64,000 nt of DNA, taken from contig QPGO01000113.1 of assembly GCA_008632985.1 (NCBI GenBank), forward strand, positions 126,947-190,946. Direction: 5' to 3'. The notes under the pieces were generated by a model, which saw nothing but the letters and a program-made list of their open reading frames with translations, had not been told where the DNA came from and ran no database searches. The stretch is from Psammoneis japonica. Taxonomy: Eukaryota. Of the stretch, positions 11,034 through 50,540 are shown in pieces; position 1 is the stretch's first letter; every line of letters begins with the position of its first letter. A program made the position numbers and the translations under genes.

Positions 11034-12611
11034 ATGCACGACTCGACCATTACACCACTGTCTTTCAACATATTGACCTCGGCACAACAGATTCGGCAGC
11101 CTTTTCCTAGCCTTGTTCACACACAAACACCGAGCCTTGTCCGCAGTTCCAGCCAGGCTGCTGATTCTTTGTCTTCCGTGGCCAACACGGCGAGCGCGCG
11201 ACACCAAAAGAGCGTAGATAGGGTGAGGGATAAGAACGAGAAGCTGGTCGTGACCATGGACAATATCAGCGCGCTGGAGGAGTTTGGAGACTATAGCTAT
11301 GAGGAGCTTCGTCTTGCAGACTACATGCAGGGAAACCGTGGTGTTCAAGGTCGCAAGTGGAATCAAGTTAGCGCGATGGAGGAGTTTACAGACTATAGCT
11401 TTGAGGAGCTTCGTCTTGCAGACTACATGCAGGGAAACCGTGGCATTCAAGGTCGCAATGGAGACCACAGCTTTGAGGAGCTACGTCTTGCGGATTACAT
11501 GCAGGGAAACCGTGACATTCAAGGTTGCAACCGGAATCAAGTTAGCGCGATGGAGGAGTTTAGAGACTATAGCTTTGAGGAGCTTCGTCTTGCAAATTAC
11601 ATGCAGGGAAACCATGGCATTCAAGGTCGCAACCCGAATCAAATTAGTGAGATGGAGGACCCAAACTATAGCTTTGAAGAGCTACGACTTGCAGATTACA
11701 TGCAGGGAAACCGTGGCATTCAAGGTCGCAACCGGAATCAAGACATTGTTCATTACGTTGCTCCGGATTCGAACTTCAAATTTTCCAAAACTCCACAAAA
11801 CGAAGAAGAGAGTTGGAAACCGACCGTGAGCTTATCGCCGCAACCATCACAACCTCTAATGTCACCAGTGGCGGCAACGCTGCAACAGATGAAGAAGACT
11901 ACAGAAGGGCAAAGCCTGGTGGATATCATGGGCTTGCAGGGCGTAGACCGAGAAGTGCTCTCGTTCCTCGCAGTCCAAGACGTGACACGACTGGCCGAGA
12001 CATGTCAAGCCCTCCGTGAGCAACCCCTGCAATGGATGTTGCACAGCGAGATTCTTGTCCGACTCCTTTGCCCCTGGGAACTTCGACAACGCATCCTATC
12101 AAGTCGTAGCGTGACTGTCACGGCCTCTTCCCGGCTGGTGGAAAGGGAAATCACCGCACCGTCAGTGTGGCAAGCACTCAAACCGATTCTGCACAATCGG
12201 CCGCTCAAGTATTCCTATGGTCTGAAGTTTACCATAAAACTCCATAATCAAGAGACGGTCCACTGCGAAGTTCACTTTCCGAATGATGTTTTTTGTCACC
12301 AAGCTGACGTTACGGTGGTGCCAAGGGGTGGCATGTATGGCGCTAACATTTTCCAAACCAAGCCGGCAACGTTGAACTGTCGTTGTGAGTCCAAGGGCTG
12401 CTGCTACGGAGGAACTTATCGGTACTATTACCTACCGACAGCACCATTATCGTTTGCGGCTCAGTTTTATTGTAATGCTTGTCTGGAATACAACATCTTT
12501 TGCAAGCTTCGCAAGATTGCACATCACCCCGCCTCCTATGTCGTGTGGGACCAAGACAATGTACGCACAAAGTATCAGTTTGATAAACGGCCTCGTGCTA
12601 CACTATTGTGA
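11034..12611 (+). CDS. Protein with five Nup98-GLEBS-like repeats, an F-box-like motif and a Cys-rich C-terminus
   Basis: Five S(F/Y)EELRLA(D/N)YMQGN units at about 11260-11740; LVDIMGLQGVDREVLSFLAVQDVTRLAETCQALR resembles an F-box. Confidence 0.75.
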   Translation: MHDSTITPLSFNILTSAQQIRQPFPSLVHTQTPSLVRSSSQAADSLSSVANTASARHQKSVDRVRDKNEKLVVTMDNISALEEFGDYSYEELRLADYMQGNRGVQGRKWNQVSAMEEFTDYSFEELRLADYMQGNRGIQGRNGDHSFEELRLADYMQGNRDIQGCNRNQVSAMEEFRDYSFEELRLANYMQGNHGIQGRNPNQISEMEDPNYSFEELRLADYMQGNRGIQGRNRNQDIVHYVAPDSNFKFSKTPQNEEESWKPTVSLSPQPSQPLMSPVAATLQQMKKTTEGQSLVDIMGLQGVDREVLSFLAVQDVTRLAETCQALREQPLQWMLHSEILVRLLCPWELRQRILSSRSVTVTASSRLVEREITAPSVWQALKPILHNRPLKYSYGLKFTIKLHNQETVHCEVHFPNDVFCHQADVTVVPRGGMYGANIFQTKPATLNCRCESKGCCYGGTYRYYYLPTAPLSFAAQFYCNACLEYNIFCKLRKIAHHPASYVVWDQDNVRTKYQFDKRPRATLL

Positions 12612-17752: not shown

Positions 17753-19284
17753 TGTCACTGCTGAGTTTGAGAATGTGGAGCTACTGTATTTGATGGCTGA
17801 TCGCGAATAGCGATGCCTTCGGCTTTTGCTCTCTGTTGTGCGAGCTACGCGCAGAAAAAACGCGCGTCAGGAAAAAACAGTTGTCAGATGGAGCGATGAG
17901 AAGTATGGGAACTTTCTCGTAGATTCTACGAGAAAAACGGGCGATAGACAGACAAATGCGACAGAAGACTCTTCCCCGTGCTTTTTGTACGGCATTCGAT
18001 GCTGACAATGGCGTGCCGCCGGTGACGCTGTTGATTAATTTTTATTGGATGAAAAGCACCAGATACGTCGTATTGCAAGTGATAAGTATAGACATGCATC
18101 CATATTGACCCTGGATGCAGTTTGTGGTTGATTTCAGGGCATCGTTGTCACTGGCTTTTTCTGCAATTTTCTACGTGAATTACGCGTAGCAACAATACGG
18201 GATATTGATGACAACGGCATCATTTTGAATGATCGATTAGAGCTACTAGACAGACACCAATGAGCAAAGTATTGTATCAGTTAAATTTACCATGCTTATA
18301 TTATTATTATTGCTGAATGCCTGAAATTAGTGTGGATGTTGTTTTCATCCCCACATGGTCACCATTGTCGCATCTCGTGTTGTGTCGTGTTTTTTGTGGG
18401 CATCTGTCGCATCTTCCTAGGCTATCCAACCTCATCTTTTTTTGAAATTGTCTCGCGCACGTGTGCGCGGTTATTAGACTGTGTAGGTGTGTGTACGTGT
18501 GTGAGGTGTAAGTAGGATATACGTAGAATTACTACTGAGTGATTGACATGCCGTGGATTTTCCGCCGGTACACAATCTACGTGGTCTACATGGAACATAA
18601 ATTTATGTTTGTCTCTGAGGCTATTACATATCATTGATTTTGCTAAGGCCTCTAATATATGTATATACCAATTCAAAAGTCTGACAGAACACCCCGAAAG
18701 AACTCTGGAATCTGGATAAAAAAAATTTCTATTTAACGGTCCGAACAGGGTTTCCCCGAAGCGCTTCTCAAAATATCTACAGATTGTATATAGTAAAACA
18801 TCTACTATTAGCAAAACAGAGTCACTGTCGGATAAATAGATCCCGTGTTCTTCGCGCGCAAACAACACGTGCAATATGCGTTGTCATGTACGTACTATAT
18901 ATGTATATCTATATATTAAATAAAAGTATATTTCAATCGTACGTCAATCGTGGGTTCGTACGAAGTACAGATCAATCACACAGAAGTGATCGGATGTCGA
19001 GAATCGCAAATGCGATTGTACGATAATGTTGACATCTTATGTGTCAATATCAATCGTATCCGGACAATCTGTTGTCACGATCATATTCTCCGAAAGGCCT
19101 TTTGTCTGTAGGAGCAGTACAAAAGGTTTAGGCTGTTGAGAACCCGTTCGGAGAAACCCAAAATGATTGAGCAGAAATGATTCTCATAATTTTCACTTTT
19201 TGAACTTCACTCTACTTTCGTTTACACTCGTTCTTCGAGCATAGTGCATTGTGCATACACACCACAGAAGGTAATGAGTTCAAG

Positions 19285-20439
19285 ATGAAGCTTTCACCTC
19301 ATGCAACCAACGCCAAAACTTCGTCAAGGCAGGAGAAAATCGTCCCTCAACCGCTGCAATCGAACTCCGAGCCGAAGAGCCTCAAACCGAGCCAGTGCCT
19401 CAAGATGGAGCAACGTTTTCATCCCGAGAAGAAGGATGGCCGTACCCACACCATCAATGTTGAGCACCATAAGAAACAAGGTGTCCCCAAGTTCATCGAA
19501 TTTCTCAAGAGCTACGATCAACTTTCAGTGGGCCAGAATGTCAGGAAGCAATCTGACAAGTTTCGTCTCATGCGCATGTTACTCCAAGGAGACGCTCTAC
19601 ATGCTTTCGAGAATGCGGCAGCGAACCTTGAAGACGAATCTGCAGAAGGAAGCTTCGAGAAATGCCTGCAACATCTCACGAGGCATGTGTTTCCCAAGAA
19701 CGCACTTTCGGTGCAGAAACGTTATTTGCGTCGTGATCTCAAGAAGCCGGAGTCCATGAAAGTGCGCGAAATTGCTGCTTGGGTCCAAGAAGTCAACGAA
19801 GACCTCAAGTTCTATCCTCCCTTTGGGAAGGAACAGAAGATCGAGGACGACGAGCTCAAGGACATCCTCTTCAACCTTGCACCTCGAAAGTGGCAGCGTC
19901 AGTCGACCGTCCAGGGTTTCGAAATTTTGAGACATGCCTGTGACGAGCTGGTTGAGTTCTTGGAGCGCCTGGAGGTCGCAGAAGACACATTTGATGGCAT
20001 TCATGCCAAGGCTGATGGCAGTGGCGGTGCTGCATCAAAAGCCAAGAGTGGTTCCCAACGTGGTTCCAAAAATGGTCACCAACATGGCACCGAAAAATCT
20101 CAGTCCGAGAAGTGGTGCATTTTGTGCGAGAAATCCACTCATAACACGGACAAGTGCTGGTCGATCAAAAGACTTGCGAAAGAATGCCGTGGGAACTGTG
20201 AACCCGACCCGAAACGGCGCCGTTCAAATGGCAACCGCATGTGGTCTCGTCGCGACAACGACAACGCCGCTCGCAAAGAAGAGTTGAATGCCATGGCGAT
20301 CCAAGCAGTTCAAAAATTGCTCAAAGCGAGTTCTTCGAACAATGATAAAAAACACAAGAGCAAAGATTGTGATTCTGACACCCTTGACGAGGAAAATTGT
20401 CAGTTTGAAAAAATGACGCGCAGTGATTCCGAGGAATGA
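19285..20439 (+). CDS. Gag of Gypsy copy 1
   Basis: QKRYLRR...KP segment and CxxC-x4-H-x4-C knuckle (CILCEKSTHNTDKC); follows the 5' LTR. Confidence 0.85.
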   Translation: MKLSPHATNAKTSSRQEKIVPQPLQSNSEPKSLKPSQCLKMEQRFHPEKKDGRTHTINVEHHKKQGVPKFIEFLKSYDQLSVGQNVRKQSDKFRLMRMLLQGDALHAFENAAANLEDESAEGSFEKCLQHLTRHVFPKNALSVQKRYLRRDLKKPESMKVREIAAWVQEVNEDLKFYPPFGKEQKIEDDELKDILFNLAPRKWQRQSTVQGFEILRHACDELVEFLERLEVAEDTFDGIHAKADGSGGAASKAKSGSQRGSKNGHQHGTEKSQSEKWCILCEKSTHNTDKCWSIKRLAKECRGNCEPDPKRRRSNGNRMWSRRDNDNAARKEELNAMAIQAVQKLLKASSSNNDKKHKSKDCDSDTLDEENCQFEKMTRSDSEE

Positions 20440-23400
20440 CTTGCACCGCAAGAGGAGTCTTACGCTCTGCTGGATGTTAGGAAGCCCAGAAAAAGGGCCA
20501 AAGTAATTCACACTAGTCCAGCAGTCGTCGCCCACATGAACACTTCATTGGGTGAGGTGAAAAACAAGCCTCCACGCGTTCTCCTTGACAGCGGAACATC
20601 GTCAACCATAATTTTGCGCAAATTCACGCGGAAACTCAGAACAAAAGCATCCGCCACCAAACTCTGGGAAACCAAAGGAGGGCTCTTCACGACTGATGGT
20701 CGATGTAAGATCCAATTCTCCTTGCCCAAATTTGACAAACATGAGATGATTGAAACAACGGCACATGTTGACAACTCCCCTTCTTCTTCGAGTCGTTATG
20801 ATGTGATCATGGGACGCGACTTAATGTCAAGTCTTGGGATGATGTTAGACTTCTCGAATGAAGAAATTAAATGGGAAGATGCAACTGCTCCCATGAAGAA
20901 TGTTGATGCACTCTTCGATGCCGATGTTTTTAAGTTGATTGCCGATCACATTGAGGAATCTCATGCAGTGATCAGTCTTAATGACAGGGTCAATCGGATC
21001 CTTGACTCAGACTGTCACGCTGCAAACCTCAATGATGTGACCGCAGCAGCTGCTCATCTAACTCCTGAAGAGCAGAAGCAGCTGAACTTCCTCTTAAAAA
21101 GATTTGAAAACCTTTTCGATGGTTCTCCAGGCAAATGGACCGGGAAACCGGTGGATTTAAAGTTGAAATCGGGCGTGAGTCCGCATCATGCCAAACCATT
21201 TCCCGTACCACAAGCCTTGGAGGCGACTGCTCGTAAGGAGGTTGAAAGACCATGCAAGTTGAAAGTCTTAAGAAAAATAAATTGTTCTGAATGGGCGGCT
21301 CCAACCTTCATTCAACCCAAGAAAAATGGCAGAGTTCGGTTCTTGTCCGACTTTCGTGAGCTAAATAAGAGGTTAATTCGTGCTCCGTTTCCTCTGCCCA
21401 ACATTCAGGATGTGCTACAGAAGCTCGAAGGCTTCATGCATGCAACGTCCCTAGATTTAAACATGGGATGCCATCACATCGAATTGACGCCGCGTGCACG
21501 TCGCTTGTGCACGATTGTCATGCCTTGGGGCAAACATGAGCACTGTAGACTCCCGATGGGAATCTGTGGAGCTCCAGATATTTTCCAAGAGCACATGAGT
21601 GAGCTCATGGCAGGTCTGGAGTTCGTCAGAACTTGTGTTGACGACACATTGTGTCTTGCAAAAGGTGATTTTCAAGACCACCTCAAGAAGCTTGAAACGG
21701 TGTTCTTACGCCTAGAACAAGCCGGATTGAAGGTCAACGCCGAGAAGTCCTTTTTCGCTAAACCCGAAGTAGACTATCTAGGCTTTCATGTCACCCGCAA
21801 GGGCATCAGCCCGATTCCAAAAAAAGTGGAAGCGATTCACGCGATCGCAACTCCTAAAACTCGCAAGGAATTGCGACGCTTTATCGGCATGATCAACTAC
21901 TATCGAGACATGTGGCCTCAACGATCTCATGTTTTAGCTCCCTTAGCCAAACTCACTTCTACCCAAGTAAAGTGGCAATGGACCGAAACAGAACAAAAAG
22001 CCTTCGAAAATATGAAGCGCATCATCTCCAAAGATATACTATTATCATACCCGGATTTTAATATACCCTTTGAGATATATACCGATGCTAGTAAATCTCA
22101 ATTGGGGGCGGTTATTACTCAGAAAAACCGACCAATTGCCTTCTACAGCCGCAAGCTGAATGGAGCGCAGACGCGTTATACTACAACGGAAAAAGAGCTA
22201 TTGTCCATAGTGGAGACGTTAAAGAGTTCCGAAATATACTGTTTGGCCAACAGATAAATATATATACGGATCACAAAAATCTCACACACAAAAATTTCAC
22301 AACGGACAGAGTCATGCGTTGGCGTCTAATAATAGAAGAATACAGTCCCGAAATAAAATACCTTGAGGGCAAGGCAAATATTGTCGCAGACGCGATTAGC
22401 CGACTTACTATGAAGAAAATAGAACCTATGGAAACCCTCAGCACAGAAGAGCTAGCTGAAAAGGTCTACCAAAATCCTACGACAATGTCTTTCCGTTAAA
22501 TTACAAAGTTCTTGATTATGAACAAAAACGGGATAAAGACATTCTCTCCCAATTGTCAAATAAGACGTTTTATACGAAGACTTTTCGTGGAGGCGAGCGA
22601 GACCGGTTGCTCATATGTCATAAGGATAAAATTGTCGTCCCGAGGACGTTACAAAAGGCAGTGATAGATTGGTGTCATACATGCCTTCTTCACCCTGGCA
22701 TAAATCGAACAGAAGAAACAATCTCACAACACCTATGGTGGTCCACCTTACGTGAAGACATACGAAAATACGTGTCGAGATGTGAGACGTGCCAAAAATT
22801 CAAAAAGAAACACAAGAAATATGGACATTTACCTCCTAAGTGCGCAGAATCCGCACCATGGGAACGACTATGTGTGGACCTTATTGGGCCATACAAAATA
22901 CGCCGTAAGGGAAAGAAAAAACCCCTAGTCCTGAAATGTTTAACTGTGATCGATCCAGCAACCAGATGGTTTGAAGTTGTGGAAATCCCAAATAAGGAGT
23001 CCACAACTGCAGCTGGACCATTAGAACGAACATGGCCAAGCAGATGTCCTTGGCCATCGTCAATTGCATGTGACCGTGGAAGTGAGTTCATCGGACACCA
23101 ATTTAGAGAAATGGTGCAAGATGATCACGGCATTAAAGTCAAGCCCACAACTGCGTGAAATCCACAAGCAAACGCAATTGTTGAACGCGCACATCAAGCA
23201 CTGGGGAACATGCTCCGCACATTTGATTTGCAACATGCACCTCCAGACACTGAGGATCCTTTCGCTGGAATGCTGTCAGCAGCAGCATTTGCGGCACGTT
23301 CTGCGCATCACACCACTGCGCAAGCTACACCAGGACAACTGGTCTTCAACAGAGACATGACATTTAACGTCCAACATGTCGCGGACTGGAAATTAATCCA

Positions 23401-23638
23401 GCAGCGAAAACAAGAAATCACAAATAAAAACAACGCTCGAGAGAATGCTCGACGCACTCCTCACACGCACAGAGCAGGAGAAAAGACACCACTCGAGAAA
23501 GACTCGCAAAAATTAGAACAGCCCCATGTTGGACCGCATGCAATGACAACGGTGCATGCCAATGGCACAGTGCAGATCAAACGCGGCAACGTTGTTGACA
23601 CTGTCAACATTCGTCGAACAGTGCCGTTTAACGACTGA
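20440..23638 (+). pseudogene. Pol (PR-RT-RNaseH-IN) of Gypsy copy 1, disrupted
   Basis: LLDSGT, LPMG, CVDD at the YxDD position, YTDAS, HPG...CxxC, DRGSEF. One-base frameshifts near 22220 and 22465 and a TGA near 23156. Confidence 0.92.
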
Positions 23639-25012
23639 CTCTAATGTGCAATTGGGGAGGCGAGTGCAACATGCGTTGTCATGTGCGCACCATGTGTGTG
23701 TGTCTGTGCATTGAATAAAAGCACATTTCAATCGCACGTCAATCGTGGGTTCGTACGAAGTACAGATCAATCACACAGAAGTGATCGGATGTCGAGAATC
23801 GCAAATGCGATTGTGCAATGATGTTGACATCTCATGTGTCAATGTCAATCGCATCCGGACAATCTGTTGTCACGATCATGTTCTCCGAAAGGCCTTTTGT
23901 CTGTGGGAGCAGCACAAAAGGTTTGGGCTGTTGAGAACCCATTCGGAGAAACCCAAAATGATTGAGCAGAAACAATTCTCATAATTTTCACTTTTTGAAC
24001 TTCACTCTACTTTCATTTACACTCGTTCTTCGAGCACAGTGCACACGATAACGCACAACAACACCATGGCGAGAAACGCGAACGCCGTCCCCTCATCTGC
24101 AAGCTGGGAATGCGAGATGCCATTGAAGTGGTTGGACAACATGCATGCGCTGCATTCATGGGTCAAGTTGGGTTTCTTCTCGCTGCTTGTTGTTGCGTCA
24201 TTTTACAACGTTTTGACCCACGCCGTGTTCTTTGCTTTGTTGCTTCTGCTCGCGCGCCACCAACAGCTCTTCCTGCAGGGTGTGGCCAGTTGCACGGCTG
24301 CATCGAACCCAAACGTGCGCGACCAACTAGCCCTGCCCCGGCTGACTCATGCGCAAACATTGAACAATTTGTTTGCCACCTGAATGCCAGGAAACTGGCG
24401 TCAGACAACCGTTTGTTCCTCCCGGCCGTAGCGAGTGCGAACAGTGCGAAGGTCGCACAGGTTCGAAGGTCGCGCAGGACGAGGAGACGGGCTGATGGTG
24501 CGCGCGATCTCGGTCCTCTTCCGCACCACTTACAGACCTCCCAGTTGGGAGTGGCGCGCGATGTGCGATGCGGATAGAGGAGAGAAAAAGACCCGGAAAA
24601 GAGACGTCCACGTCATCGTGACAGCATGTTCAAAGTAAAATCAAACATTTCACAAAGTCGGTAAAGACTTCATGATCGTGGCTGAATGACGACAAGCCCA
24701 CAACCCAAAAACGTTGTTCGACTTCGAGCCAAAGCAAGCCAAATGAATGGTGTAAATCGTCAAGTGTCATTTCCACTTCGACACAAAGAAAGCTGAATGA
24801 ACAGCGGTCAGATTTCAAATTCAGAGCAATGCAGAAATGCCAACAGTGAATGAGAACCACTGTGGGTGTGCGCTTTAATGTCATCAGACGAATCCTGGCA
24901 ATGAACACACAAATGAATTTGTGTTCCATCCACATTCTGAACTTTGATGTGTCGGCTTTTTTTTGACACCCGACAACATCAAACGCATGCTTGTAATGTA
25001 GACCTGTGCATC

Positions 25013-28000
25013 ATGAATCAAGGCTCTAATCCCACAGTGGTCAATCCACACTCTGCAAGAAATGAAGCCACAAGAAGGAACAAGAGGTTGGCGGAAAACA
25101 CAGTGGCGAGAATGATGAATGCGGCAAAGAAAACAGCCGAGCAGGAGAAGAGTCGCGTCGCTAGCACTGCAGCTGCTGCCAGGAGTTGTCGTGGAAAGAG
25201 GGCGGCAGAAACTCGTGCTTCCAACAGAGCAGCAAAGGCTTCACGACAAGATGGGAATGCCATTGTGGAAGATGGTGCTTTGAAGGGCTCTTTTGCTTCA
25301 TGCACCTTAAAAGTGTGCGACAAGTTGTCTGAGCATCTCAAGAAGTGTGTTGGGTTCAAGGCAAATGGCAAACATGAGCCATGCGGAAGCTGGCCTCAAA
25401 TGTTTGGCTCTTCAATGATTGATTTGTCTTCTGATCCAGTGAACAACTTTCCTTTTGCACCAGGACAAGAAAGTGCGGAACAAGAAAACGCCGCACCGCT
25501 CTGCCGAGAGGATTTTGCTGTGCCGCCTGTCATGTTTTTTGGGCCGGAGGATCGTTGGCGGTTGTTTCATTGGCCAGAATGCAGGCCCTGCTGCCCCTTT
25601 CATCCCGGAGAAACTGAGTGTGTTGGCCATCTTGGACATTCAGATTGTGCCAGGCGTGCATGCGGGGAGCATCAAAATGAAGCTTTTGTCAGGCGTCGGC
25701 ACATGTGCACGCGAATGCAGAAGGAGAGCCACGGCACCCGTGACAGGGAGAGCTGCACATTCCATGGCTGTGACTCTGCAGCACTGTCACAATCACCCGA
25801 GTGTGTTCAAGGTTGGTGGCGGCAAAATGGTTGCAAAATCACTTCCAAAGGCGCGATCAAATGGAAACTCATTGACCAAATGAGATCGTCTCTTTCACAC
25901 GGAATGAGTGGGCTTGGCTTTGTGAAGTCGCTGATGGAGCGATGCAAGCAGACTCATGCTGTGAAGGCAAAAATGTGGCGAGGATGCGTTGCTTTTGCTC
26001 ACAACTCAGTTAAAAGGGACAGTCGAATTGAAAAGCAAAGTTTGTATTTTGACTTTGACGACGAGAGGTCGGAAATGCAAGTGCCCTCCCTAGCGCAACT
26101 GTTGGAAGCAACAATGTCAGAAATCGAGTCTTGCATTCCTTGCTGTCGTCACAAAATGACAATGAATGGCGGCCTTTTCCTTTCTGGGGACCATTTTGTC
26201 AAAATTGGAAAGGTCGTTTTGATCGAGAACAAAAGAGGTTTCATTGGATTGTGCACGGTTGTGAATGAGTTTGGCCATGCATTGTCATTCCGACTTGTCA
26301 CCGGCACAACCTCATTGGAGGTTGAGGACAGCCTGCGTGGTCTCAACAGACGGCACAGAATGCACGGTTTTAAAGGCCCTGTTGTTTTCACGACGGATCG
26401 ATGCTGCGATGAGCGCTCGTTCTATGAAGGAGACAGAAACAATGGCGAGGAACCCACATTCCATTCCTTTGTTCCAGAGACAGAAGAAGAAATGGATTGT
26501 GCCACATCCGCCATGGAGCCACAAGGTGAAAGTGGCACAGACCAGCCTCGAAAGGGATTCAAATTTGTTGAGCATCTCAACATTGCCAAGCCACCAATCA
26601 CGTTCTCTACAAAACAAGTTGCCGATGCCACAGCCAAGGACATTCTTGCCAAATGTGCTGAAAATAATTGGAATGCATTGTCCATTGACACAGAGTGGAC
26701 GGTCGGGACCGAGGATGGCCCGCACACTGTTCAAGTTGCTACGCCTGATTTGGAGAACTGCGTTTTTGTGTCACCCTGTCCTGACGGGCTCAAGCTTCTC
26801 TTGGAGTCGAAAGCCATAAAGAAAGTTGCCTCCAAGATTGATGCAGACAAAAGGAAGCTTGCACAGATTGGGGTGTCATTGACCAATGCAACAAACCTGC
26901 AGAACGTGGCAAAAGAACGAGGCATCGTGGAAAGGGCGACGGTTGGTCTTAATGACATTGCGAAGGCTCTTTTTGGCTGTGGAGTCAACAAAGACAACAG
27001 ACTGCGTTTGTTTGATTGGAAAGGATCCCACATTGATGACGAGCATTGTCGTTGTGCTGCTGTCGATTCTTGTGTGCAAATGATGGCGCACTTGAAAATG
27101 GCGGCCATGCCGGATGTTGATCCCAGAGAGATTCCGCCCCCAGACGCAAGGGATCTCAAGGAAAATGACAAGATGTTGCTGCACACAACCAACAAATCTG
27201 TGGTGGTTGCAGAAGCAAGCTATGTGGGCCCATCAAAATCAGTGACTCCCTTTTGCGTCAAAGTCGATCCAGCTGCTGTCATGGTTCGACTCGACACCGT
27301 CAAGCGGCCTTCTGCAACTGTTCCGAAAATGGACAAGAAATGCATTGAGGAGATCACTGCAGATGGCACAAATGAAATTACACGGGAATTGAGGAACTTA
27401 CGGGTTGTCCCCACGAGTCAATGCAATGCGGTCGCGTTTGAAATGCACACGAGAAAAACACAAGAGCGAATGTCGGAGAGCGATGAAAGCGCCGACGATT
27501 CTTCTGTCCCGCCTGCTGCTGTGCCGCCACCTGGAATAGAGAATGAAGACGATGAAGAAATTGATGATGAGGGAGAGTGTGATGATGAACATGAAGACCA
27601 ACAACAAGCGGGAATCGAGCGTCAGTTTCACACGAAGCAAGACATCGAACACATTTTCATTCGGTTCGGGAGGGTCATCTCGAAAAGCCACGGTGCCTTT
27701 GGGGTGTTCATGGCTCGACTGTCGGATGTCTTCTTTGTTCCTTGCCAGACTGACATTGAGTTTGTCAAGGAAGCATTGCGAAAGAGTGGACTCAGCGAAG
27801 ACGACATCAACGCCTTGCCCTGGAAGTTTTTTCGAAAACGGGTCCGTCGTGCAGTGCCGGGCCCGAAAGAGTTGGAGAGAGAATTCACGAAGCTTGTGAA
27901 TCTTCTTGCAAATGTGCCGGACGCAAAGACCAAGAAGCCACTCTTTCAAAAGAAAGCATGGAATCTCTACAAGTCTACGCTTCGTCACATGCGGAAGGGT

Positions 28001-29416
28001 TGCCTCAGTGACATCCCTTTAATGTCGTGCCACGTTCAGATCGGCACGGACTCATGTGGCATCCCGCTTTTTAAATGTCTTCGAGGAACGAGTGCACTTG
28101 AAGGATGTCATCAAAAAGTCCGACAACTGCTGCGAGCATTCAACTACTCTCCCAGGCTTGTCATTGCATTGCTGTATGAATTTGTTCACCGTTGGAACCA
28201 CGATGTCAGTGTGCGCGTTCTCGGTCTACCCAGCAAATATGCCAACTACTACGATGGCTGGGAGGTGGAGCAAGAAATCAAGGTAACGGCATCATGGGAA
28301 GAGCTGCTCGAGCCGCCACACTCAAAGTGGGAGATGACTGAGGACTTTAAAAATACTGGGGAGGAGTTCGGCATTGAGGGTGCGCTCCGAGAGAGCAATC
28401 TTGAAGACGAAGTCACGAAGCTTGTTGATGCGTTTGAAGATGGCAGCTTGGATGATGATAATGCTGATGGCGATCAATCTCTTTCTAAGTATCAAGAATT
28501 GCCTGCATCAGCCTCCTGGATTGCAAAGAAGCTCGGTCGGAAAAGAGGCGTCAAACCAGTTGAGTCGCCTACAGAAGTCGATTTTTTCCGTCGTAACTAC
28601 ACAAGTTATCAAAGCCTTGACGGCCGACAAACCGAAGCTGATAATTATTCGTGCATTCAATGGGGTGAGATGACAAATTTTTGGAATCAAGTAGTCAAGG
28701 ATGAAGATGATGGAAAGAGACCGGTGACTGATATGACTTACAAAAACGCATTTCATCTCATGGCGTATTGGCAAGAGTTCAAAAGGAAAGGGAATGTCGC
28801 GGCGACTGTTCTACCAGTGAAGGAGGCGAACAAGAACTTGAGACAGGAGTTGAGAGGACCGTCTCGAACAACAGAGGTTGCTTTCCTTGGCAGCAGAAAA
28901 ATAGTGGAACCGGCCCCTCGAGGCAAGCCGGCGTCAGAGACGGCGGAGGATGATCCAAAGCCGTACTCTATTTTTGAAGACGACCAAACGTTTCCGACCG
29001 GCGATGATTTCCACATCACGGATGACACTGATGACTTGCTTCCAACAGCTGAAGATGATCACAGTGTGGAATATACAAAAGATACAGAGTCACCGTTGCA
29101 AGAGCCTGTTGCCGTGCTTCCTTTCGTGGGCAAACTTCCCAGCGGCAAGCGTCCTTCAGACTACGTTACACGTCAACCAGTGCAAAATACAACACCTCCT
29201 GGAGCAAGCAGAAAGAATAACAAGCAAAAGGTGAGAAGGAGATGTCGAAAATGTGGTATGGACAAATCTTTTGATATGTATGCTGAATATCACCAAGGGA
29301 CCGGATTCAACAAGGAGCTACGGAAGTTCATTCAGGCGAATGACGTCTGCACGACCCCAGCAGATGAACGCTTGGATGGCTTTCCCATTGCCAGTGGGGT
29401 GCGCATGGCTCGATGA
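25013..29416 (+). CDS. Dada-like DDE transposase with inserted DEDDy 3'-5' exonuclease domain
   Basis: SGDHF, TTDRCC, QDIEH (DxxH), RGTSALEGCH; SIDTEW...QVAT...DW...CAAVD exonuclease motifs lie between the second D and DxxH; C-terminal CRKC...H...C. Superfamily assignment is from recalled architecture, not a search. Confidence 0.75.
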   Translation: MNQGSNPTVVNPHSARNEATRRNKRLAENTVARMMNAAKKTAEQEKSRVASTAAAARSCRGKRAAETRASNRAAKASRQDGNAIVEDGALKGSFASCTLKVCDKLSEHLKKCVGFKANGKHEPCGSWPQMFGSSMIDLSSDPVNNFPFAPGQESAEQENAAPLCREDFAVPPVMFFGPEDRWRLFHWPECRPCCPFHPGETECVGHLGHSDCARRACGEHQNEAFVRRRHMCTRMQKESHGTRDRESCTFHGCDSAALSQSPECVQGWWRQNGCKITSKGAIKWKLIDQMRSSLSHGMSGLGFVKSLMERCKQTHAVKAKMWRGCVAFAHNSVKRDSRIEKQSLYFDFDDERSEMQVPSLAQLLEATMSEIESCIPCCRHKMTMNGGLFLSGDHFVKIGKVVLIENKRGFIGLCTVVNEFGHALSFRLVTGTTSLEVEDSLRGLNRRHRMHGFKGPVVFTTDRCCDERSFYEGDRNNGEEPTFHSFVPETEEEMDCATSAMEPQGESGTDQPRKGFKFVEHLNIAKPPITFSTKQVADATAKDILAKCAENNWNALSIDTEWTVGTEDGPHTVQVATPDLENCVFVSPCPDGLKLLLESKAIKKVASKIDADKRKLAQIGVSLTNATNLQNVAKERGIVERATVGLNDIAKALFGCGVNKDNRLRLFDWKGSHIDDEHCRCAAVDSCVQMMAHLKMAAMPDVDPREIPPPDARDLKENDKMLLHTTNKSVVVAEASYVGPSKSVTPFCVKVDPAAVMVRLDTVKRPSATVPKMDKKCIEEITADGTNEITRELRNLRVVPTSQCNAVAFEMHTRKTQERMSESDESADDSSVPPAAVPPPGIENEDDEEIDDEGECDDEHEDQQQAGIERQFHTKQDIEHIFIRFGRVISKSHGAFGVFMARLSDVFFVPCQTDIEFVKEALRKSGLSEDDINALPWKFFRKRVRRAVPGPKELEREFTKLVNLLANVPDAKTKKPLFQKKAWNLYKSTLRHMRKGCLSDIPLMSCHVQIGTDSCGIPLFKCLRGTSALEGCHQKVRQLLRAFNYSPRLVIALLYEFVHRWNHDVSVRVLGLPSKYANYYDGWEVEQEIKVTASWEELLEPPHSKWEMTEDFKNTGEEFGIEGALRESNLEDEVTKLVDAFEDGSLDDDNADGDQSLSKYQELPASASWIAKKLGRKRGVKPVESPTEVDFFRRNYTSYQSLDGRQTEADNYSCIQWGEMTNFWNQVVKDEDDGKRPVTDMTYKNAFHLMAYWQEFKRKGNVAATVLPVKEANKNLRQELRGPSRTTEVAFLGSRKIVEPAPRGKPASETAEDDPKPYSIFEDDQTFPTGDDFHITDDTDDLLPTAEDDHSVEYTKDTESPLQEPVAVLPFVGKLPSGKRPSDYVTRQPVQNTTPPGASRKNNKQKVRRRCRKCGMDKSFDMYAEYHQGTGFNKELRKFIQANDVCTTPADERLDGFPIASGVRMAR

Positions 29417-29476
29417 TAAATTAAATAACTTACTGTCACATTGCATGTAGCATGTTCGGCGTCATCTTAGACCCCA

Positions 29477-29748
29477 CTCGTAGCTTGTCGTGTCCTACAC
29501 CGCCTACTCCAATGCCGCCCAGATACTGCAATGCCACCCACTCCTACTCGTAGCTTGTTGTGGCCTACACCGCCTACTCCAATGCCGCCCAGATACTGCA
29601 ATGCCAACTGCTCCTACTCGTAGCTTGTCGTGTCCTACACCGCCTACTCCAATGCCGCCCAGATACTGCAATGCCACCTGCTCCTACTCGTAGCTTGTCG
29701 TGTCCTACACCGCCTGCTCCAATGCCGCCCAGATACTGCAGTGCCACC
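29477..29748. repeat. 70-bp tandem repeat, about 3.9 copies
   Basis: ctcgtagcttg recurs at 29477, 29547, 29617 and 29687 with near-identical intervening sequence. Confidence 0.95.
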
Positions 29749-30300
29749 TTTTCCCACATCGACTGGCTACTCCACAATGCCGACGACTCGTGAGCCTCCT
29801 TCTCCAATGCTAACCCCCATTTGCCAGTGGGGGGGTGCATGGCTAAATGACAATAAAGTAGAGTTCGCTTTCCCCATCCATCAACTCTAGAGTAAGTATG
29901 CTCCACATCAACCTATAGGATATGGTGCAACCCCAAGAAAAGATGTCAACCTGTAGGAAGTGGTGCAAACCCTGGAAAGAATATAGCAAGACAAAGATTA
30001 GTGCTGGAAAGAGGAACAAATGATGCCAAGCATGCGGAATGGACAAGGCTTACACCTGCTCAAATGCCGCATGCTACTATTCCACCTACTCACAATCGGT
30101 AGCTTACCAGTAATGTCACTCTTCCCACAACGGGGAGATTGATGACGTGGTCTCACTTATTCCAGGTGCCGTCAAGCTACCAGTAATGCTGCTCTTCCCA
30201 AAAGTGGTACATTGTATGATAGATTGCCACAAAAAATACTCCACGCCCTTGAATTTTCTGTAATGGACAAAGATTAACGCAAACTAAAAAGTAGTGAGAA

Positions 30301-32024: not shown

Positions 32025-33260
32025 CTATATCATCTTATGGTGCGGCTCTTGTTGGTCTTCGTGAAACCAGCCTGAAGATGACCATCTTTCCCGTTGCTGG
32101 GCTGGCAAAACTTCGTGGGGCAACGACACAGAGTCAAACATGACTAGCGTTCCACCCAGCGGAGGGACATCCACCGACAGTTCATCCGATTCTGGTTCCG
32201 AGGGAGCTGTCGCTTTCTTCAACAAGGCTGTGGCAGCGGATTTGGGTGGTTCCAAGAAATGAAACCGTGGCGCCAAGTCAGGTGCATCAATCAAGAGTCG
32301 CTGCGCAAAAAAATCACCTCCCGACAGAAACAAGACAGGATCTGGATTGAAATTCTTGGAAATGTAAACTGGTTTGTCGTCCTTGAGAATGTACATGGCG
32401 CAATACCCATCAGTTTCGGCGTTGTTATTGTTCAAATGCCGTCTCCCGTCCATAAACACGGCCCGTTCCGTTGGATCAGATTTGGTCGAGCGTAACCACC
32501 CAATTTGCAAGTCACCGTTTTCTCGGGAGCCAATTACCGCATTTTTTGTGGGGTGGTTGCGTCTTTGGAAGCACCGAATACAACCACCATGTAGGTCTGG
32601 ATCCCAATCTTCCTCGTTCAGATAGATTAACCACGACACGGAACGACGAGTTGGCTTTTCCCAACCACGTCTTCCCTTTAGTTCTTCATGGTGCTCGTCA
32701 ATATGGCGTTTCAAATAGGCGCCAGGTCCAAAACGCGTATAAGAAATTTCTGTCGATCCAACTCCATACTTAGTGGTGCTTACGCCTTTATCCAAATGAG
32801 GACGATCCAAATGAGTCGATAAGTCGGACCGAACCTTTGCCATTATGGACCCAAACACATTGTGCCTCAAATGCGGATTCCCAATATCTGTACGTTTCCA
32901 TTGATCGAGTTTTAACACGGTACGATCGCGTGCCGGATCGAATTTCGTGGTGGCCTCCGTCCCGTAGGCAGCAAGTGCGTCGGCAGAAAAATGCACGTCG
33001 CGATACAACCCAACAGCATCCTTTCTCAATTCTGACACAAGATCCTCTTGCAAGAAATTGGGAACAACTGCAATCCTGCCCTGTAATATCGTATCATACA
33101 CCGAATCATCAAACAGCTTGTCTGCAGCCAGGTCCACTTTAGTAGAACTACTGCACAGTCTCCAATCTCGCCCACTTTCTCTTCTGGGCAACGGCACAAA
33201 TGCCAGGGAGCCTTGGCAACCCCACAAGGCCAGAATAGAGCATGACCACGCAACTTTCAT
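32025..33260 (-). CDS. 2OG-Fe(II) oxygenase (prolyl-hydroxylase-like), probably plastid-targeted
   Basis: RHIDEH (HxD), SWLIYLN, GGTLVMFDS...PHEV...R..GWF; signal peptide followed by SLA-FVP. Confidence 0.85.
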   Translation of the reverse strand: MKVAWSCSILALWGCQGSLAFVPLPRRESGRDWRLCSSSTKVDLAADKLFDDSVYDTILQGRIAVVPNFLQEDLVSELRKDAVGLYRDVHFSADALAAYGTEATTKFDPARDRTVLKLDQWKRTDIGNPHLRHNVFGSIMAKVRSDLSTHLDRPHLDKGVSTTKYGVGSTEISYTRFGPGAYLKRHIDEHHEELKGRRGWEKPTRRSVSWLIYLNEEDWDPDLHGGCIRCFQRRNHPTKNAVIGSRENGDLQIGWLRSTKSDPTERAVFMDGRRHLNNNNAETDGYCAMYILKDDKPVYISKNFNPDPVLFLSGGDFFAQRLLIDAPDLAPRFHFLEPPKSAATALLKKATAPSEPESDELSVDVPPLGGTLVMFDSVSLPHEVLPAQQRERWSSSGWFHEDQQEPHHKMI

Positions 33261-34323
33261 AATTGTTTAGGTATCGCAACCACCATACCAGTTTGGAAGT
33301 TTTTTGACCTCGTGTAGTACAGAGGTTGAAGTTTCCCGCCCTCGCAGATTTTTGAATTTTTCTGTGACGCAAGCATTTCTAATGTTGTGCAGCACCCATA
33401 AAGCCAATCGAAAGATCATCATCTTCTGTTGCTCTGTTTTGCTGCCACACCTGCTGGTTGTTTAGGTTGTTCGTTGCTCTGTGTGTGACAGTTTGTCAGA
33501 TGCAAATGCAAAGCTGAGTTGAGTTGAGTTGAGTTGCACTGTGCTCGCTCATGTCGGTCGCTGCTGCTCACTTTCTCGCCTGCCTGTGCCAACAAGCAGC
33601 ACGAGCCATGGGCTGAGCAAAAGATGTTTGATTGCAACACAAGGCAGCAGGCAATTGTGTTTCCAGAGCACAGTGGTCAGTTCTGATGTGAGTTCATCTG
33701 GCTTGATGACATCCACATGCCACACTTTGAGAGGCACTTTGTTGTGCCTCCGTGGATGAAAGCGCTCTGAGAGAGACAGCAAGCAACGACTTCTCTTGTT
33801 GTTGTTTGACCATGAGCTGCTGGTGAATGGCTTTTCAAAAAGTGGCAGCTTGGGGCATGGCACAGTTGCTGATGCTGCTGATCCTGTCCCACCAATTGTG
33901 ATGCAGCCAAGCACACACAAAAAGCCCACTCTTTTTGGCAACATGATGCTGTCCCCACAATTTGTTGCTTTCACCTGACATCTGCTTGTGGTGTGTCTGG
34001 TGTTTCATCATTGGCATCTAAGAAAAATGCTGCACAGGACAAATCTGCTGAGGACAACAGCAGTGTGCCAAGAGAAGCTCATTGAGAATTTTGGGCTGGC
34101 CGTGCTGTGCCAATGCTGTGCCAGAAAGATGCTCTGTCCATGGTCAAATCCCAGCCGGACATCTCGTGAAAAGCAAACTTTGCCAGAATGATGCCATTGT
34201 GGCAAAACAGTTTGGCAACCATTTTTTTTAAGTGATGCTGCATCAGTGCCATCTCAAAGTGAGCAGCTGTTTGTTGCAGTGGCGCACTCTTGAACCAACA
34301 ACAAACAGATGTGGCAGAGAGTT

Positions 34324-37300
34324 TGACAGAAATTGAAGGCAAATGGCAAGAATTCAAACAACAACTCCTCACTGCTGTCTAAATAGCAGATGAGTCTCCG
34401 CTCAGAGACCGTTGCAGGAGCCGAAAGACGGGCAAGTCAGCACAATCGGGCCACTGTTGTTGTTCTTGTGAGCCTTGTGGCTCGAAAGCAAACTACATCA
34501 CGCGTGAACGCGCGGAACTAAAGCACACAAAACTGTGCGCGGTAAACTAAACAGCGCGCGATGCTTCGCGCGCATCCAAATCCTGTTCAAATCCTGTCAC
34601 TCCCCAGTTTGCTTGAGGAGCCACAGAAACAGATTCGACTTCGGATGGAATGAAGTTCCAGAACATGAGGGGTCGGAGAAGGTCCCAGATTTGGGAGTGA
34701 CCCCAATGCTTGCTGAGAATGTCAGCAGGGTTGCGGGAGCCTTCGATGAAGTGGAACTCAAGGTAACCAGAGGCAATTGCCTCACGCACACGGTGGAACG
34801 ATGGTGCGGTGTGTCGCTTGTGTAACTTGGAGTGCGGGATGGTGGCACTGTCTACAACCGACTTGTTGTCACCGAACATGCAACTGACATTACGGATCGG
34901 GACGCCAAGGCAGCGCAGGGTGATGCGCAGGTCGACAATCTGCTCAACACAATTCCTTGCGGCAACAAATTCAGATCCGCAGGTTGCAGTCTCCACGGTG
35001 GCTTGTTTCTTGGAGAACCAATCAGCCGGGAATTTGTTGAGGAAGTGGAGCATTCCATGACAGAGCGTCCGGTGAGCATGCAATGGCACAAGTTTGCATC
35101 GACGTAGTGGGTGGCAGTGACGAACTTGCCAAGGGGCGGTGGAGCGTCCTTCGGGATCATCTCTTCTGCTTCACCACACACGGAATGCATCCATTCGCAG
35201 GCCGGAGCAGGGAGATCCGAATGGTCGGGCTCTTCCGTGCGAACACGGAGAGCACCGTGTCGCATCTTGGAGAGGCACCCACAGACGCGTTTGGCACGGT
35301 CCAAGTGGCCTTGACGGGGCGCAGCTCGGAAGCTAGAGAGTGACATGACGGCCGTGGCAATGTCAATTCGACCAAGGGACACTGCCCATTGGAGTGAACC
35401 AACAAGAGACTGGAACTTGTGAATGCCATCGGGTCCCAGCAGTTCGGAAGTGTCCAGTTCGGGGTGGTCACCCTTCTCTAGAGGTGACAGGGCGTTGGTG
35501 GTGGGTTTCTCCCCAAACAGTCGGGCGCAGCTGTCGACCATGCGCTCGATGTACTTGCGCGGAGACAGGCACAAGGTTCCGTCGGGGTCCCGGGAAAAGT
35601 TGCAACCCAGATGGAACTCAATGGGTCCCGCACCCTTGAGCTTGAACTTGTGCTTTTCCGTGAGAGTGTCGACGAAAGATTGAGGGTCCTTCATGGCAAT
35701 GGCGAGGTCATCCACATAAACGGCAATGCATTCACAGTGGTCGCCGTTCCTGCGCATCCAAATGTCGGGTTCGGCGCGGCAGGGGAAGAAGCCTTCAGCT
35801 CGCAGGCAGTCGGCGAAGCGCTCGTGCCAGCGGAGACCGGAGCTGCGGAGTCCATACAGTGCCTTGTGTGTGACAAGGATGTGTCCTTCGAGTTTGCCAA
35901 ATTCGGGTCCAGCTGCAATGTAAAGCTTCTCCTTGGTGGTGGCTTCAAGGCAGGCATTGCCAATGTCGGTGGCCCATGTCTCCAGCTCGTTGAGTTCGGC
36001 CAGGAAAATCATCAGCCGAAGGCCACGAAGGGAGACTGCTCCGGAGCAGACACTGTCGATGGGTACGTCCGTGAGGTGCCCGTCGGCTACGAGTCGTGCC
36101 TTGTGGCGACCGTCGTGTTTCACGTCGTGCACCAGGTGCACTCGGATCTTCTTGTGTCCCACAGGAGGAGTGGAAGACTTGAAGGGCCCGCAGTCATGGA
36201 AGACTTCACATTCGTCGAGTTGGTCCATCTCGAGATTAGTTGCGTCTCCCCACTTGCGGTTGCCGTTGCGTTCGTCTAGTGACATGGCGTGTTTGTAGTT
36301 CCGGGGAACTTCGCATCCGCACTTGCAGCGAGGTGCAGTGCGGAAGGAGTGAAGCTTGGCTTGGTTGGCCATGCGAAACAGCTTCTTTTGGCGCCTCGCG
36401 ATGGTGCGGAACCGCTTCCATCCATCCGTGTCGAGGAGTCCGTTCTCTCGTGCATAGATGGCACAGGTGACGGGGTCGTCCTTGGCGATGATGGCAAGAG
36501 GCTCGGACGTGATCTCCCCACTTTCCCATTCAAGCATGATGTTGTAGCTTGAGCCTTTCCAGGTTGGGTCGTGAGGCTTCAGAGGGCCTTCGTGTGACAC
36601 GATGCGTCGAAATTTCCAAATGGTGGTGTCTTCGTCTTCTTGCTCAATGTGATTCATGATGTCATTGCAGGCAAGGACTTCCTCGTATTCGTCATTGTTG
36701 ACAGAGCAGACGAACTTAGTGAGCTCGGGATTGCCGTTCACTTTCCATTCGTGGGAACCCATCATCAAATCTCGCCATGACGACAACCCCATCGATTCTC
36801 CTGATGGGGAGATCAGGACACCCAAGATGCCAGTTTTCGATCCGCAAGACATCATTGGACGTACCTTCCTCATGCAGCCACAAGAGGACAGACGAACTTA
36901 GTGAGCTCGGGATTGCCGTTCACTTTCCATTCGTGGTCTTCGACGGCCTTGACGATGCGAGCTCTGTGGCGTTGTCCGTCCTCTTGTGGCTGCATGAGGA
37001 AGGTACGTCCAATGATGTCTTGCGGATCGAAAACTGGCATCTTGGGTGTCCTGATCTCCCCATCAGGAGAATCAACGGGGTTGTCGTCATGGCGAGATTT
37101 GATGATGGGTTCAGGTGGCTCCCCATCAGGAGGATCAAGACGCAGGTTTCGAACGGCAGGATCGGGGGTGGCGGAGCGAACGTTGGACCGGCAGAGGATC
37201 TTCTGAGTCTCGTCAGATAGAATCTTGAAGGTCATCTGGTGGCCGACGTGCTCAGCAATGCCAACGAAGCATCCACGCAACTCACGAGATTCGGACGGCC

Positions 37301-44600: not shown

Positions 44601-44934
44601 TTGCTCAGCCAAGTTGCCCAATGTCACAAGAGCGGGTTGTGCTTGCAGATGACCTGCACTGTCACAGAAAGCAGAGTCACCAAACAATGCGGCGGGACAA
44701 ACAAAGTGTGACTTAGAAGAGCACTCATTGCCCTGATCAGCCAAGAAGCAGCTGAGATCATGCTTGGCTTGCTTCCACCAATGATCTCCAGTGTTGAGAG
44801 AGCTGCAAATGTGCCAATTTATTTTGGGACAGTGCCCAGTGCTTCGCCTCATGTGACCAATGACAAGACTGGACAACATGGGGATCATGGAACACCCTTC
44901 TCAAACAATGCAAAAAGGAAAATTGGCACACATG

Positions 44935-49571: not shown

Positions 49572-50540
49572 CATGCACTGGGAAAAACACAGGTCCCATG
49601 TGCACACAGCAGAGCAGATGGGCTCCAGCCAAACATGATCGGCACATGCTTTGCTTTCGTGCATCACAAGGCAGTGAACCAGGACAAAGACTTGTGCTTG
49701 TGGCAACTCTCCTTGGCTCATCTGGCCCAAGACAGAAAAGCCTTGCACAAAGTCAACCATGGGAGAGAAGATGCTTTTTTTCATCATCACAGCCAACTCT
49801 TCCTCAACTGGGTGAAGCTTCTTGGTGGCATTGGTTTCACAAATGCATGGAAAGTCACAACAGCTGAGCTTCTCCCATTTCCTCTAAATCAAGTGTGCAT
49901 CAAATCAAGTCAGTGCAAACCATCATCTTTTTCATGGATGCTGCAACTGCTGTCCTTGTTCAAGAGAGAAGAGGATGAGCAAGAATGATGCACCAAGAGA
50001 GCACCAAATGTCATGACAGCACAGACCATTGTCAGATGGGTCTTGAGCCAGAGAGCCAATGCTGAGTTTCTCTGTCTTCCCCGGTGTGTGATGAGAATTA
50101 ATGCCTTCATTGAACAACCACTCAGTGCAACATGCGTTGTCATGTGCGCACTGTGTGTGTACATCCATGTGTTGAATAAAAGCACATTTCAATCGTACGT
50201 CAATCGTGGGTTCGTACGAAGTGCAGATCAATCACACAGAAGTGATCGGATGTCGAGAATCGCAAATGCGATTGTACGACAATGTTGACATCTTATGTGT
50301 CAATGTCAATCGCATCCGGACAATCTGTTGTCACGATCATATTCTCCGAAAGGCCTTTTGTCTGTAGGAGCAGTGCAAAAGGTTTAGGCTGTTGAGAACC
50401 CGTTCGGAGAAACCCAAAATGATTGAGCAGAAACAATTCTCATAATTTTCACTTTTTGAACTTCACTCTACTTTCGTTTACACTCGTTCTTCGAGCACAG
50501 TGCATTGTGCATACACACCACAGAAGGCAACAAGTTCAAG

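Follow-up and report, generated by a model that had tools for sequence, protein, structure and literature searches.

How can two copies of one mobile element, inserted at separate places in the same genome, come to disagree at dozens of shared positions, one of them having CA where its counterpart has TG? This question is raised by a 64,000-nucleotide stretch of DNA from the diatom Psammoneis japonica (GenBank assembly GCA_008632985.1, contig QPGO01000113.1, positions 126,947 to 190,946; the whole stretch is referred to as the window, and positions are counted from its first letter), in which a repeat search and Pfam identify three Gypsy-type long terminal repeat (LTR) retrotransposons and one Copia-type element. 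The original prediction concerned the protease and reverse transcriptase interval of one Gypsy copy (20536-21660, forward strand) and held that two copies had been mutated independently, on opposite strands, at the same ancestral TA dinucleotides. The answer proposed here is that a host process in this diatom probably changes T:A to C:G at TpA sites of integrated mobile DNA.

The two copies, recognised from repeats, LTR alignment, inspection of the flanks and Pfam matches, belong to one Ty3/Gypsy family and both lie on the forward strand. Copy 1 (18870-24043, 5174 bp) is bounded by LTRs at 18870-19248 and 23665-24043 and by the 4-bp target duplication CACG at 18866-18869 and 24044-24047; copy 2 (50126-55301, 5176 bp) has its LTRs at 50126-50504 and 54923-55301, the target duplication TCAG at 50122-50125 and 55302-55305, and a single reading frame from 50460 to 54896 on the forward strand. 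The predicted element limits are exact; the direct 379-nt LTRs start with TG, end with CA and adjoin these duplications. Pfam places RVT_1, RT_RNaseH_2, Integrase_H2C2 and rve in succession, the Pol order of Ty3/Gypsy elements; a protease DSG motif is found at 20584-20598 of copy 1, and relatives bear aspartyl-protease domains. Since their 4-bp target duplications differ, copies 1 and 2 are separate insertions. Copy 1 lacks one base at 22220 and another at 22465 with respect to copy 2 and to four contigs of sequencing run X1, so that its pol frame is broken; these gaps could be either real deletions or consensus errors of the assembly.

Aligned over their whole length, the two copies show 290 mismatches and two one-base indels. 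All but two of the mismatches (288) are transitions, and 253 are of TpA type: at 167 sites TA of either copy faces CA or TG in its counterpart, and at 43 sites, equivalent to 86 mismatches, CA is opposed to TG. Transitions placed at random on the same sequence, in contrast, gave a mean of 65 and a maximum of 89 TpA-type mismatches in 2000 trials. The remaining differences comprise 24 sites with CG against CA or TG, one site with TA against CG and 11 mismatches of other kinds, and the dinucleotides unchanged in both copies amount to 254 CG/CG and 76 TA/TA. In particular, a T precedes 80 of the 96 A/G mismatches, and an A follows 83 of the 96 C/T ones. With the polarity derived below from untouched tracts and homologues, nearly all changes turn out to be A>G or T>C, and they are for the most part confined to TpA, as are the differences between paired LTRs. 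The interval 20536-21660 lies where both copies are mutated and holds 71 differing bases, with 27 of the 43 CA/TG sites, nine TA-versus-CA/TG sites and four CpG-type sites, next to 47 CG/CG and 16 TA/TA dinucleotides left unchanged. The strings on which the prediction was built are all present: GGATGCCATCAC at 21466-21477 of copy 1 versus GGACACTGTCAC at 52722-52733 of copy 2 (GCHH versus GHCH), ACGGCACATGTTGACAAC at 20758-20775 versus ACGGTGTGTGTTGATGAC at 52014-52031, GACAGC versus GATGGC at 20584/51840, and KHEHC versus KHECC at 21534/52790, while at 21634/52890 both copies read TGTGTTGACGAC (CVDD).

In principle, a CA/TG discordance could descend from CG as well as from TA. Decay of methylated CpG, with C>T changes on opposite strands in the two copies (CG to TG and CG to CA), would yield the same discordance, and such decay operates here as a minor process, given the 24 sites with CG against CA or TG and two private stop codons discussed below. 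However, a CpG origin would require about 89% of the CpG dinucleotides to have decayed, whereas 254 are kept in both copies against the 24 decayed, and at the 167 sites described above one copy still reads TA. The counts agree, on the other hand, with a simple model that lets about half of all ancestral TpA change per copy: it predicts about 77 TA/TA dinucleotides, and 76 are seen. The two origins can also be compared site by site with a set of 60 homologous Pol proteins, which were drawn from public metagenome and genome sequences and share 49-61% identity with the query, by asking which dinucleotide encodes the residue of the relatives at each of the 42 coding CA/TG sites, ten of which have no homologue column. 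TA fits better at 28 of the 32 testable sites and CG at three, with one tie (sign test p = 5e-6), and control sites of CpG type reverse this outcome (CG better at 13, TA better at one, two ties). The question posed in the original prediction, whether CG might fit better, is answered in favour of TA by this per-site comparison, and ancestral CG at the discordant sites is rejected; as an explanation of the discordances, CpG decay is hardly credible.

The homologues are informative on single residues as well. Columns with at least 80% Tyr among the 60 relatives number 24: at least one copy carries His or Cys at 17 of them, both copies keep Tyr at five and both have Phe at two. Specifically, the relatives read GYYH, KYEY and YIDD or YLDD where the copies read GCHH/GHCH, KHEH/KHEC and CVDD, which bears out the GYYH, KYEY and YxDD motifs that had been proposed for the ancestor.

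The LTRs lead to the same polarity. Positions 18869-19168, at the start of the 5′ LTR of copy 1, are 100% identical to positions 54922-55221 in the 3′ LTR of copy 2, and these untouched parts hold TA where the 3′ LTR of copy 1 and the 5′ LTR of copy 2 hold CA or TG, often differing from one another. Because two independent insertions cannot gain the same TA, the TA shared at some twenty-five LTR sites has been retained and not gained. The third Gypsy copy, taken as an outgroup, reads TA at 6, CA at 8, TG at 10, CG at 2 and other dinucleotides at 14 of the 43 CA/TG sites, with 3 gaps; it weakly favours TA, being mutated itself. Dinucleotide counts, untouched LTR tracts and homologues, and to a lesser degree this outgroup, concur in TA as the ancestral state.

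The same evidence bears on a change in the opposite direction, that is, on a process similar to the repeat-induced point mutation of fungi (RIP), in which C>T changes at CpA would have converted ancestral CA or TG and the TA-rich tracts would be the mutated ones. RIP is a known repeat-directed process at this very dinucleotide pair, as one account of it states (PMC2621366), and differences between TA and CA or between TA and TG, taken alone, show no direction. Yet CA against TG at one and the same site is impossible by RIP, and there are 43 such sites; moreover, two independent insertions agree in every one of 300 nt across their TA-rich LTR parts, and Tyr is conserved in the relatives where the copies have His or Cys. 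Instead of the TpA enrichment that marks fungal RIP, TA is depleted, with an observed/expected ratio (obs/exp) of 0.43 for the whole window and of 0.21-0.26 in the mutated tracts, versus 0.84-0.89 in the untouched ones. A RIP-like origin is, in our view, barely tenable.

When does the process act? Reverse transcription provides a new insertion with two identical LTRs. The 5′ and 3′ LTRs of copy 1 now differ by 30 mismatches, 27 of them TpA-type, and those of copy 2 by 20, all TpA-type. The third Gypsy element (44935-49571, forward strand, 4-bp target duplication CATG), which is older, related and 67% identical to copy 1, has 13 TpA-type mismatches out of 14, and the Copia-type element (34324-41604, reverse strand, 276-nt LTRs, target duplication GAGTT) has nine out of 11, with two of CpG type. 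Over the four elements, the LTR pairs show 75 mismatches, 69 of TpA type, five of CpG type and one other, whereas in 21 related metagenome elements with terminal repeats, used as a control, 57 of 436 LTR mismatches are TpA-type. Since LTR pairs that were identical at insertion now differ almost only at TpA, the changes took place after integration. These comparisons indicate that it is DNA already integrated in this genome that the process changes, at a pace far above background mutation.

Along the elements, the changes are arranged in tracts with sharp ends. In copy 1, the first part of the 5′ LTR (18870-19177) is untouched. A first hypermutated tract (19178-21889, TA obs/exp 0.26) then covers a stretch over which copy 2 has changed as well, which is why the CA/TG discordances are found there. 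It is followed by a tract with no change in copy 1 (21890-22944, TA obs/exp 0.89), where 60 of 78 TpA are converted in copy 2, and by a second hypermutated tract that includes the 3′ LTR (22945-24043, TA obs/exp 0.23), with 66 of 82 TpA converted. Copy 2 is hypermutated from its 5′ LTR to within integrase (50131-54304) and untouched from there to its end, 3′ LTR included (54305-55301, TA obs/exp 0.89). Where one copy alone has changed, conversion of TpA thus amounts to 59-80% (19/32, 60/78 and 66/82), and G+C is about six points higher in the mutated tracts (0.47, from about 0.41). The flank upstream of copy 1 (18001-19000; TA obs/exp 0.95, G+C 0.40) is untouched and adjoins the untouched part of the 5′ LTR. 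The flank downstream of the untouched 3′ end of copy 2 (55302-56000), instead, is strongly depleted, with a TA obs/exp of 0.25; mutated tracts therefore do not simply spread from their neighbours.

Within the tracts, both strands are used to the same extent. The 145 changes consist of 73 to CA and 72 to TG, interleaved with one another, and no strand-coordinated cluster is significant among them in runs tests (p = 0.92, 0.058 and 0.53). If A is taken as the edited base of each change, a pyrimidine follows on its 3′ side in 117 of 145 cases and, at sites where only one strand offers a pyrimidine, that strand was chosen 45 times versus 16 (p = 2.6e-4). At the level of tetranucleotides, ATAT is changed in 31 of 32 occurrences and TTAA in two of nine.

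These features have a direct bearing on RNA-level editing, that is, on the possibility that an ADAR- or ADAT-like activity converted A to I in the RNA of the element before reverse transcription. Retroelement RNA is a natural substrate for such an activity, and A-to-G change with a 5′ U preference resembles ADAR, as noted in the Discussion of a preprint on the alga Bigelowiella natans (bioRxiv 10.64898/2026.01.13.699255). Nevertheless, sense RNA alone is copied, so that A>G on the forward strand alone would be expected, and the 73:72 interleaved changes contradict this; in addition, the LTR pairs differ. ADAR is said to prefer a 3′ G, at variance with the 3′ pyrimidine preference found here, and is not known outside animals. 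RNA hyperediting, with its changes on one strand and before integration, was consequently discarded as a match, and RNA-level editing in general is judged very improbable.

As for the independence of the two copies, the conserved Tyr columns in which both have mutated show five discordant His/Cys pairs and five concordant ones, which is the ratio to be expected for independent changes on a randomly chosen strand. Together with the differing target duplications, this upholds the independent mutation of the two copies that the original prediction had postulated. In other words, an ancestral TA that was changed independently, and on opposite strands, in the two copies would today be CA in one of them and TG in its counterpart.

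Several points weigh against this interpretation. The whole argument is built on standing differences within one window of 64 kb, whereas rates in B. natans have been measured de novo. Three of the 32 testable sites, as said, fit CG better; furthermore, at the HVD motif (20758-20775 of copy 1), for which an ancestral Tyr had been proposed, the relatives have His, which is the reading of copy 1, so that this site fits CA rather than TA. At column 303 of the LTR alignment, both LTRs of copy 1 carry CA and TA is kept in the 3′ LTR of copy 2 and in copy 3; because the two LTRs share it, this change was probably inherited from an already mutated source. Likewise, at the CA/TG sites 20123-20124 and 20697-20698, most of the contig depth of run X1 has CA, the state of copy 2, and not TA, and a few sites thus look inherited rather than independent. 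Run X1 itself may derive from the same sample as the assembly and would then not be independent. Finally, the end of the copy 2 tract and the start of the second copy 1 tract share about 100 bp (22945-23045 in copy 1, 54203-54303 in copy 2); this near-coincidence could be due to chance or to a feature of the element that sets the ends, or it could hint at an exchange between the copies.

Some of these observations would suit a different scenario, in which the changes come from older copies and copies 1 and 2 are mosaics, patched together through template switching between co-packaged RNAs or through gene conversion from one copy to another. Tracts and discordances would then reflect ancestry, and the TpA process, although real, would not have acted in place on these two copies. 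Sharp tract ends, two of them nearly coinciding, speak for this scenario, and so do the CA common to both copy 1 LTRs at column 303, the two CA/TG sites at which most of the family depth is in the state of copy 2, and the abundance and variability of the family, with 4632 contigs of run X1 aligning on copy 1. On the other hand, the LTRs of a new insertion are identical, yet all four pairs differ, and nearly always at TpA; the mutated 3′ LTR of copy 1 is continuous with the tract at 22945-24043, as the 5′ LTR of copy 2 is with its own tract; and the tracts overlap by about 100 bp instead of abutting, unlike the product of a simple crossover. Gene conversion, moreover, would be needed separately in each of the four elements. 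On balance, we consider it unlikely that the two copies are mosaics of this kind.

It could also be asked whether the DNA has changed at all, as systematic base-calling or consensus errors at a modified base within TpA might mimic mutation. A noisy consensus at a palindromic modified site could give rise to both the random choice of strand and the incomplete conversion, and the two one-base deletions of copy 1 are absent from other copies. Against such an artefact, contigs of run X1 (whose library type is unrecorded) contain 54% of the sampled 31-mers of copy 1, which is more than the untouched part, about a quarter of this copy, could account for, and short, deep contigs of this run show the same transition excess across the family. 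In addition, changes of this kind were measured as true mutations with Illumina reads in B. natans, as reported in the preprint (bioRxiv 10.64898/2026.01.13.699255). An artefact of this sort seems most improbable.

Mutation in place by a TpA-directed process accordingly remains the preferred explanation, and its steps can be outlined as follows. A TpA change on one strand would give TG, and on the other strand CA. The process would act after integration, in sharp-ended kilobase tracts and on both strands, with a preference for T-A-Y, and it would ruin the encoded proteins via Tyr to His or Cys, Ile to Thr or Met and similar replacements, while raising G+C. The direction of change, its restriction to TpA, the tracts, the timing after integration and the strand symmetry follow directly from the comparisons above; from them, we infer an enzymatic host defence aimed at silenced or foreign DNA or chromatin. 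The simplest chemistry would be deamination of adenine to inosine, which is read as G, and we advance it tentatively, as somewhat short of an even chance. A thymine-directed modification, in the context R-T-A on the other strand, is equally compatible, because TA is palindromic. As far as is known, tRNA adenosine deaminases always meet their substrate in a T-A context, namely U33-A34.

The coding consequences are in line with the nature of the change. The 122 polarised in-frame changes include 73 that alter a residue (Ile>Thr in 13 cases, Thr>Ala and Tyr>His in 11 each, Tyr>Cys in nine, and further kinds) and none that creates a stop, because a change at TpA can only lose TAA and TAG. Each copy does hold a private stop codon, at about 23414 in copy 1 and about 53658 in copy 2; both, the only ones of this kind, are CGA>TGA and are products of CpG decay. 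Of 278 CpG positions, 24 distinguish one copy from the other, while the mismatches of other kinds number no more than 11 over some 5 kb; so large an excess suggests that the elements are CpG-methylated. Decay of methyl-CpG is thus present as a minor second process and, judging from dinucleotide composition, TpA hypermutation and CpG decay would jointly drain old repeats into CA/TG.

Is a process of this kind known elsewhere? In mutation-accumulation lines of B. natans, Mettrop et al. describe de novo TpA-to-TpG/CpA hypermutation (bioRxiv 10.64898/2026.01.13.699255). Mutations arise there in two integrated viral regions, at a rate of about 6e-7 per site and generation; nearly all are A>G or T>C, every one falls at TpA, and some lines only are concerned. 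TpA-poor genes of that alga are enriched in reverse-transcriptase and DDE domains, and an adenine deaminase of ADAT2-like type is put forward in the preprint, with RIP named as a comparable process. The words diatom, retrotransposon and LTR are absent from its main text, although its supplements may hold data on context and strand. Searches of the literature found no report of TpA hypermutation in diatoms or in LTR elements, the sole match being this preprint; the passage of an apparent diatom match (PMC9258296) that was considered turned out to be irrelevant.

The two cases share A>G and T>C changes almost exclusively, their restriction to TpA, the strand-dependent outcome TpG or CpA and the bounded regions of foreign DNA. 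They differ in host and target: B. natans is a chlorarachniophyte, that is, a rhizarian, whose targets are integrated giant-virus and virophage DNA, whereas the host here is a diatom, a stramenopile, and the targets are high-copy LTR retrotransposons. With respect to B. natans, near-saturated kilobase tracts inside single elements, post-integration evidence from paired LTRs, equal and interleaved use of the strands and the 3′ pyrimidine preference are new. In other words, the novelty lies in host lineage, target class, tract structure, LTR evidence and T-A-Y context, while the signature itself is of the B. natans type.

More distant parallels can be drawn as well. Like fungal RIP, the process makes dinucleotide-specific transitions at the DNA level, after integration, in repeated mobile elements and at the same CpA/TpG-TpA pair. 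However, RIP converts C:G to T:A, makes TpA and leaves A+T-rich DNA with stops, while the change seen here converts T:A to C:G, removes TpA, raises G+C and makes no stops. Animal APOBEC3 and ADAR resemble it as deaminase-type hypermutation of retroelements with a neighbour-base preference, but they mark one strand, on cDNA or RNA during replication, whereas the present marks lie on both strands of integrated DNA and set paired LTRs apart. Deamination of methyl-CpG in silenced transposons also feeds CA and TG, as at the 24 CpG-type sites above and in an old repeat described below; nonetheless, the dinucleotide concerned is another one, the transition runs the opposite way, and the finding is not explained by it.

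Targeted hypermutation that turns A:T into G:C in DNA is otherwise known from one 2026 preprint on one alga, and the diatom LTR case widens TpA hypermutation to a second eukaryotic supergroup and a second target class. Any mechanism has to account for the T-A-Y context, for strands used equally and for tracts that are nearly saturated. It is nearly an even question, with the balance slightly on the negative side, whether diatoms possess an active DNA-level defence, a chemical mirror of RIP, that converts most TpA in tracts of integrated foreign DNA, probably by adenine deamination in the context T-A-Y. If they do, occurrence in both a stramenopile and a rhizarian would point to an old trait of the SAR lineages or to an invention made more than once, the enzyme could be sought in diatoms as a genetically tractable system, and, as no stops are made, the process would leave behind long open but dead frames, G+C-enriched and TpA-free fossils. 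A natural TpA-directed editor of adenine in DNA, should it exist, would also be of interest to builders of base editors. For genome annotation, removal of TAA and TAG leaves long reading frames that are spurious or dead and raises the G+C of repeats, and the joint action with CpG decay drives old repeats into a CA/TG sink.

How far does the signature extend? Windows of 1 kb with a TA obs/exp of at most about 0.33 and a CA+TG ratio of at least about 1.25 span the four elements, a 1491-codon frame (24941-29416) and several unnamed stretches. In these 1-kb profiles, the elements have TA obs/exp of 0.03-0.33 and CA+TG of 1.25-2.0 (for the internal part of the Copia-type element, TA is at 0.09-0.22), against 0.48-0.73 and 0.95-1.25 for host genes; together with the sharp tract ends, the profiles show that bounded mobile DNA has been changed and host genes spared. 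An unnamed repeat at 41605-44921 has TA obs/exp of 0.05, CG of 0.11 and CA/TG of 1.86/1.89, which suggests an old repeat emptied by TpA hypermutation together with CpG decay. Less extreme stretches of this kind occur at 33001-34000, 55001-56000 and 60001-61000. Pfam gave no match on the open reading frames (ORFs) of 41605-44921 and 55302-57851.

The 1491-codon frame lies directly after copy 1 on the forward strand and has a TA obs/exp of 0.05-0.15. Its protein gives a weak Pfam match to a 3′-5′ exonuclease (E = 5.5e-6), and Atlas look-alikes (score 0.96) bear DUF6729 and an exonuclease domain. Probably, the frame is that of a mobile-element gene which has been hypermutated and owes its openness solely to the loss of TAA and TAG stops through a process that creates none.

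Beyond the window, the contigs of run X1 aligned on copy 1 reveal 563 variant places, 502 of which are transitions, and runs X2 and X3 gave no contigs aligned to the stretch. The 40 best-supported variant places of run X1 were tried as a guide to the ancestral state of the family and set aside, as they turned out to be mostly private changes of copy 1, of mixed kinds. An environmental baseline is provided by 80 metagenome loci, found with the homologue alignment and a pattern requiring an intact GYYH, and hence biased to unmutated elements; their TA obs/exp has a median of 0.73 and a range of 0.56-1.06. A metagenome scan queried with the mutated copy 2 protein found no relative.

The remaining features of the window can be listed briefly. 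Host genes around the elements, which include COG3, cactin, CstF-64 and a Nup98-like gene, are single open frames. The named relatives of the COG3 protein, apart from one differently labelled transcriptome, are the diatoms Seminavis, Nitzschia, Pseudo-nitzschia and Ditylum, at 61-70% identity, so that this one gene also places the host among the diatoms. No deaminase domain was found by Pfam among the 37 ORFs of the window that were scanned, and Rfam and tRNA scans of the window gave no matches. Tandem repeats occur at 29473-29822 (70 nt, four copies) and, within the Nup98-like gene, at 11183-11632 (about 174 nt); in contrast to the LTR pairs, the differences among these repeat copies are mostly at sites other than TpA. 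The Copia-type element contains a 155-nt inverted repeat at 36755-37112, with arms 94% complementary and 48 nt apart. Near the end of the window, two neighbouring ORFs on the reverse strand (61415-62494 and 63179-63931) match a kinase-like Zeta_toxin/AAA_33 domain (E = 8e-24 and 7e-14), and a single N at 62606 lies between them.

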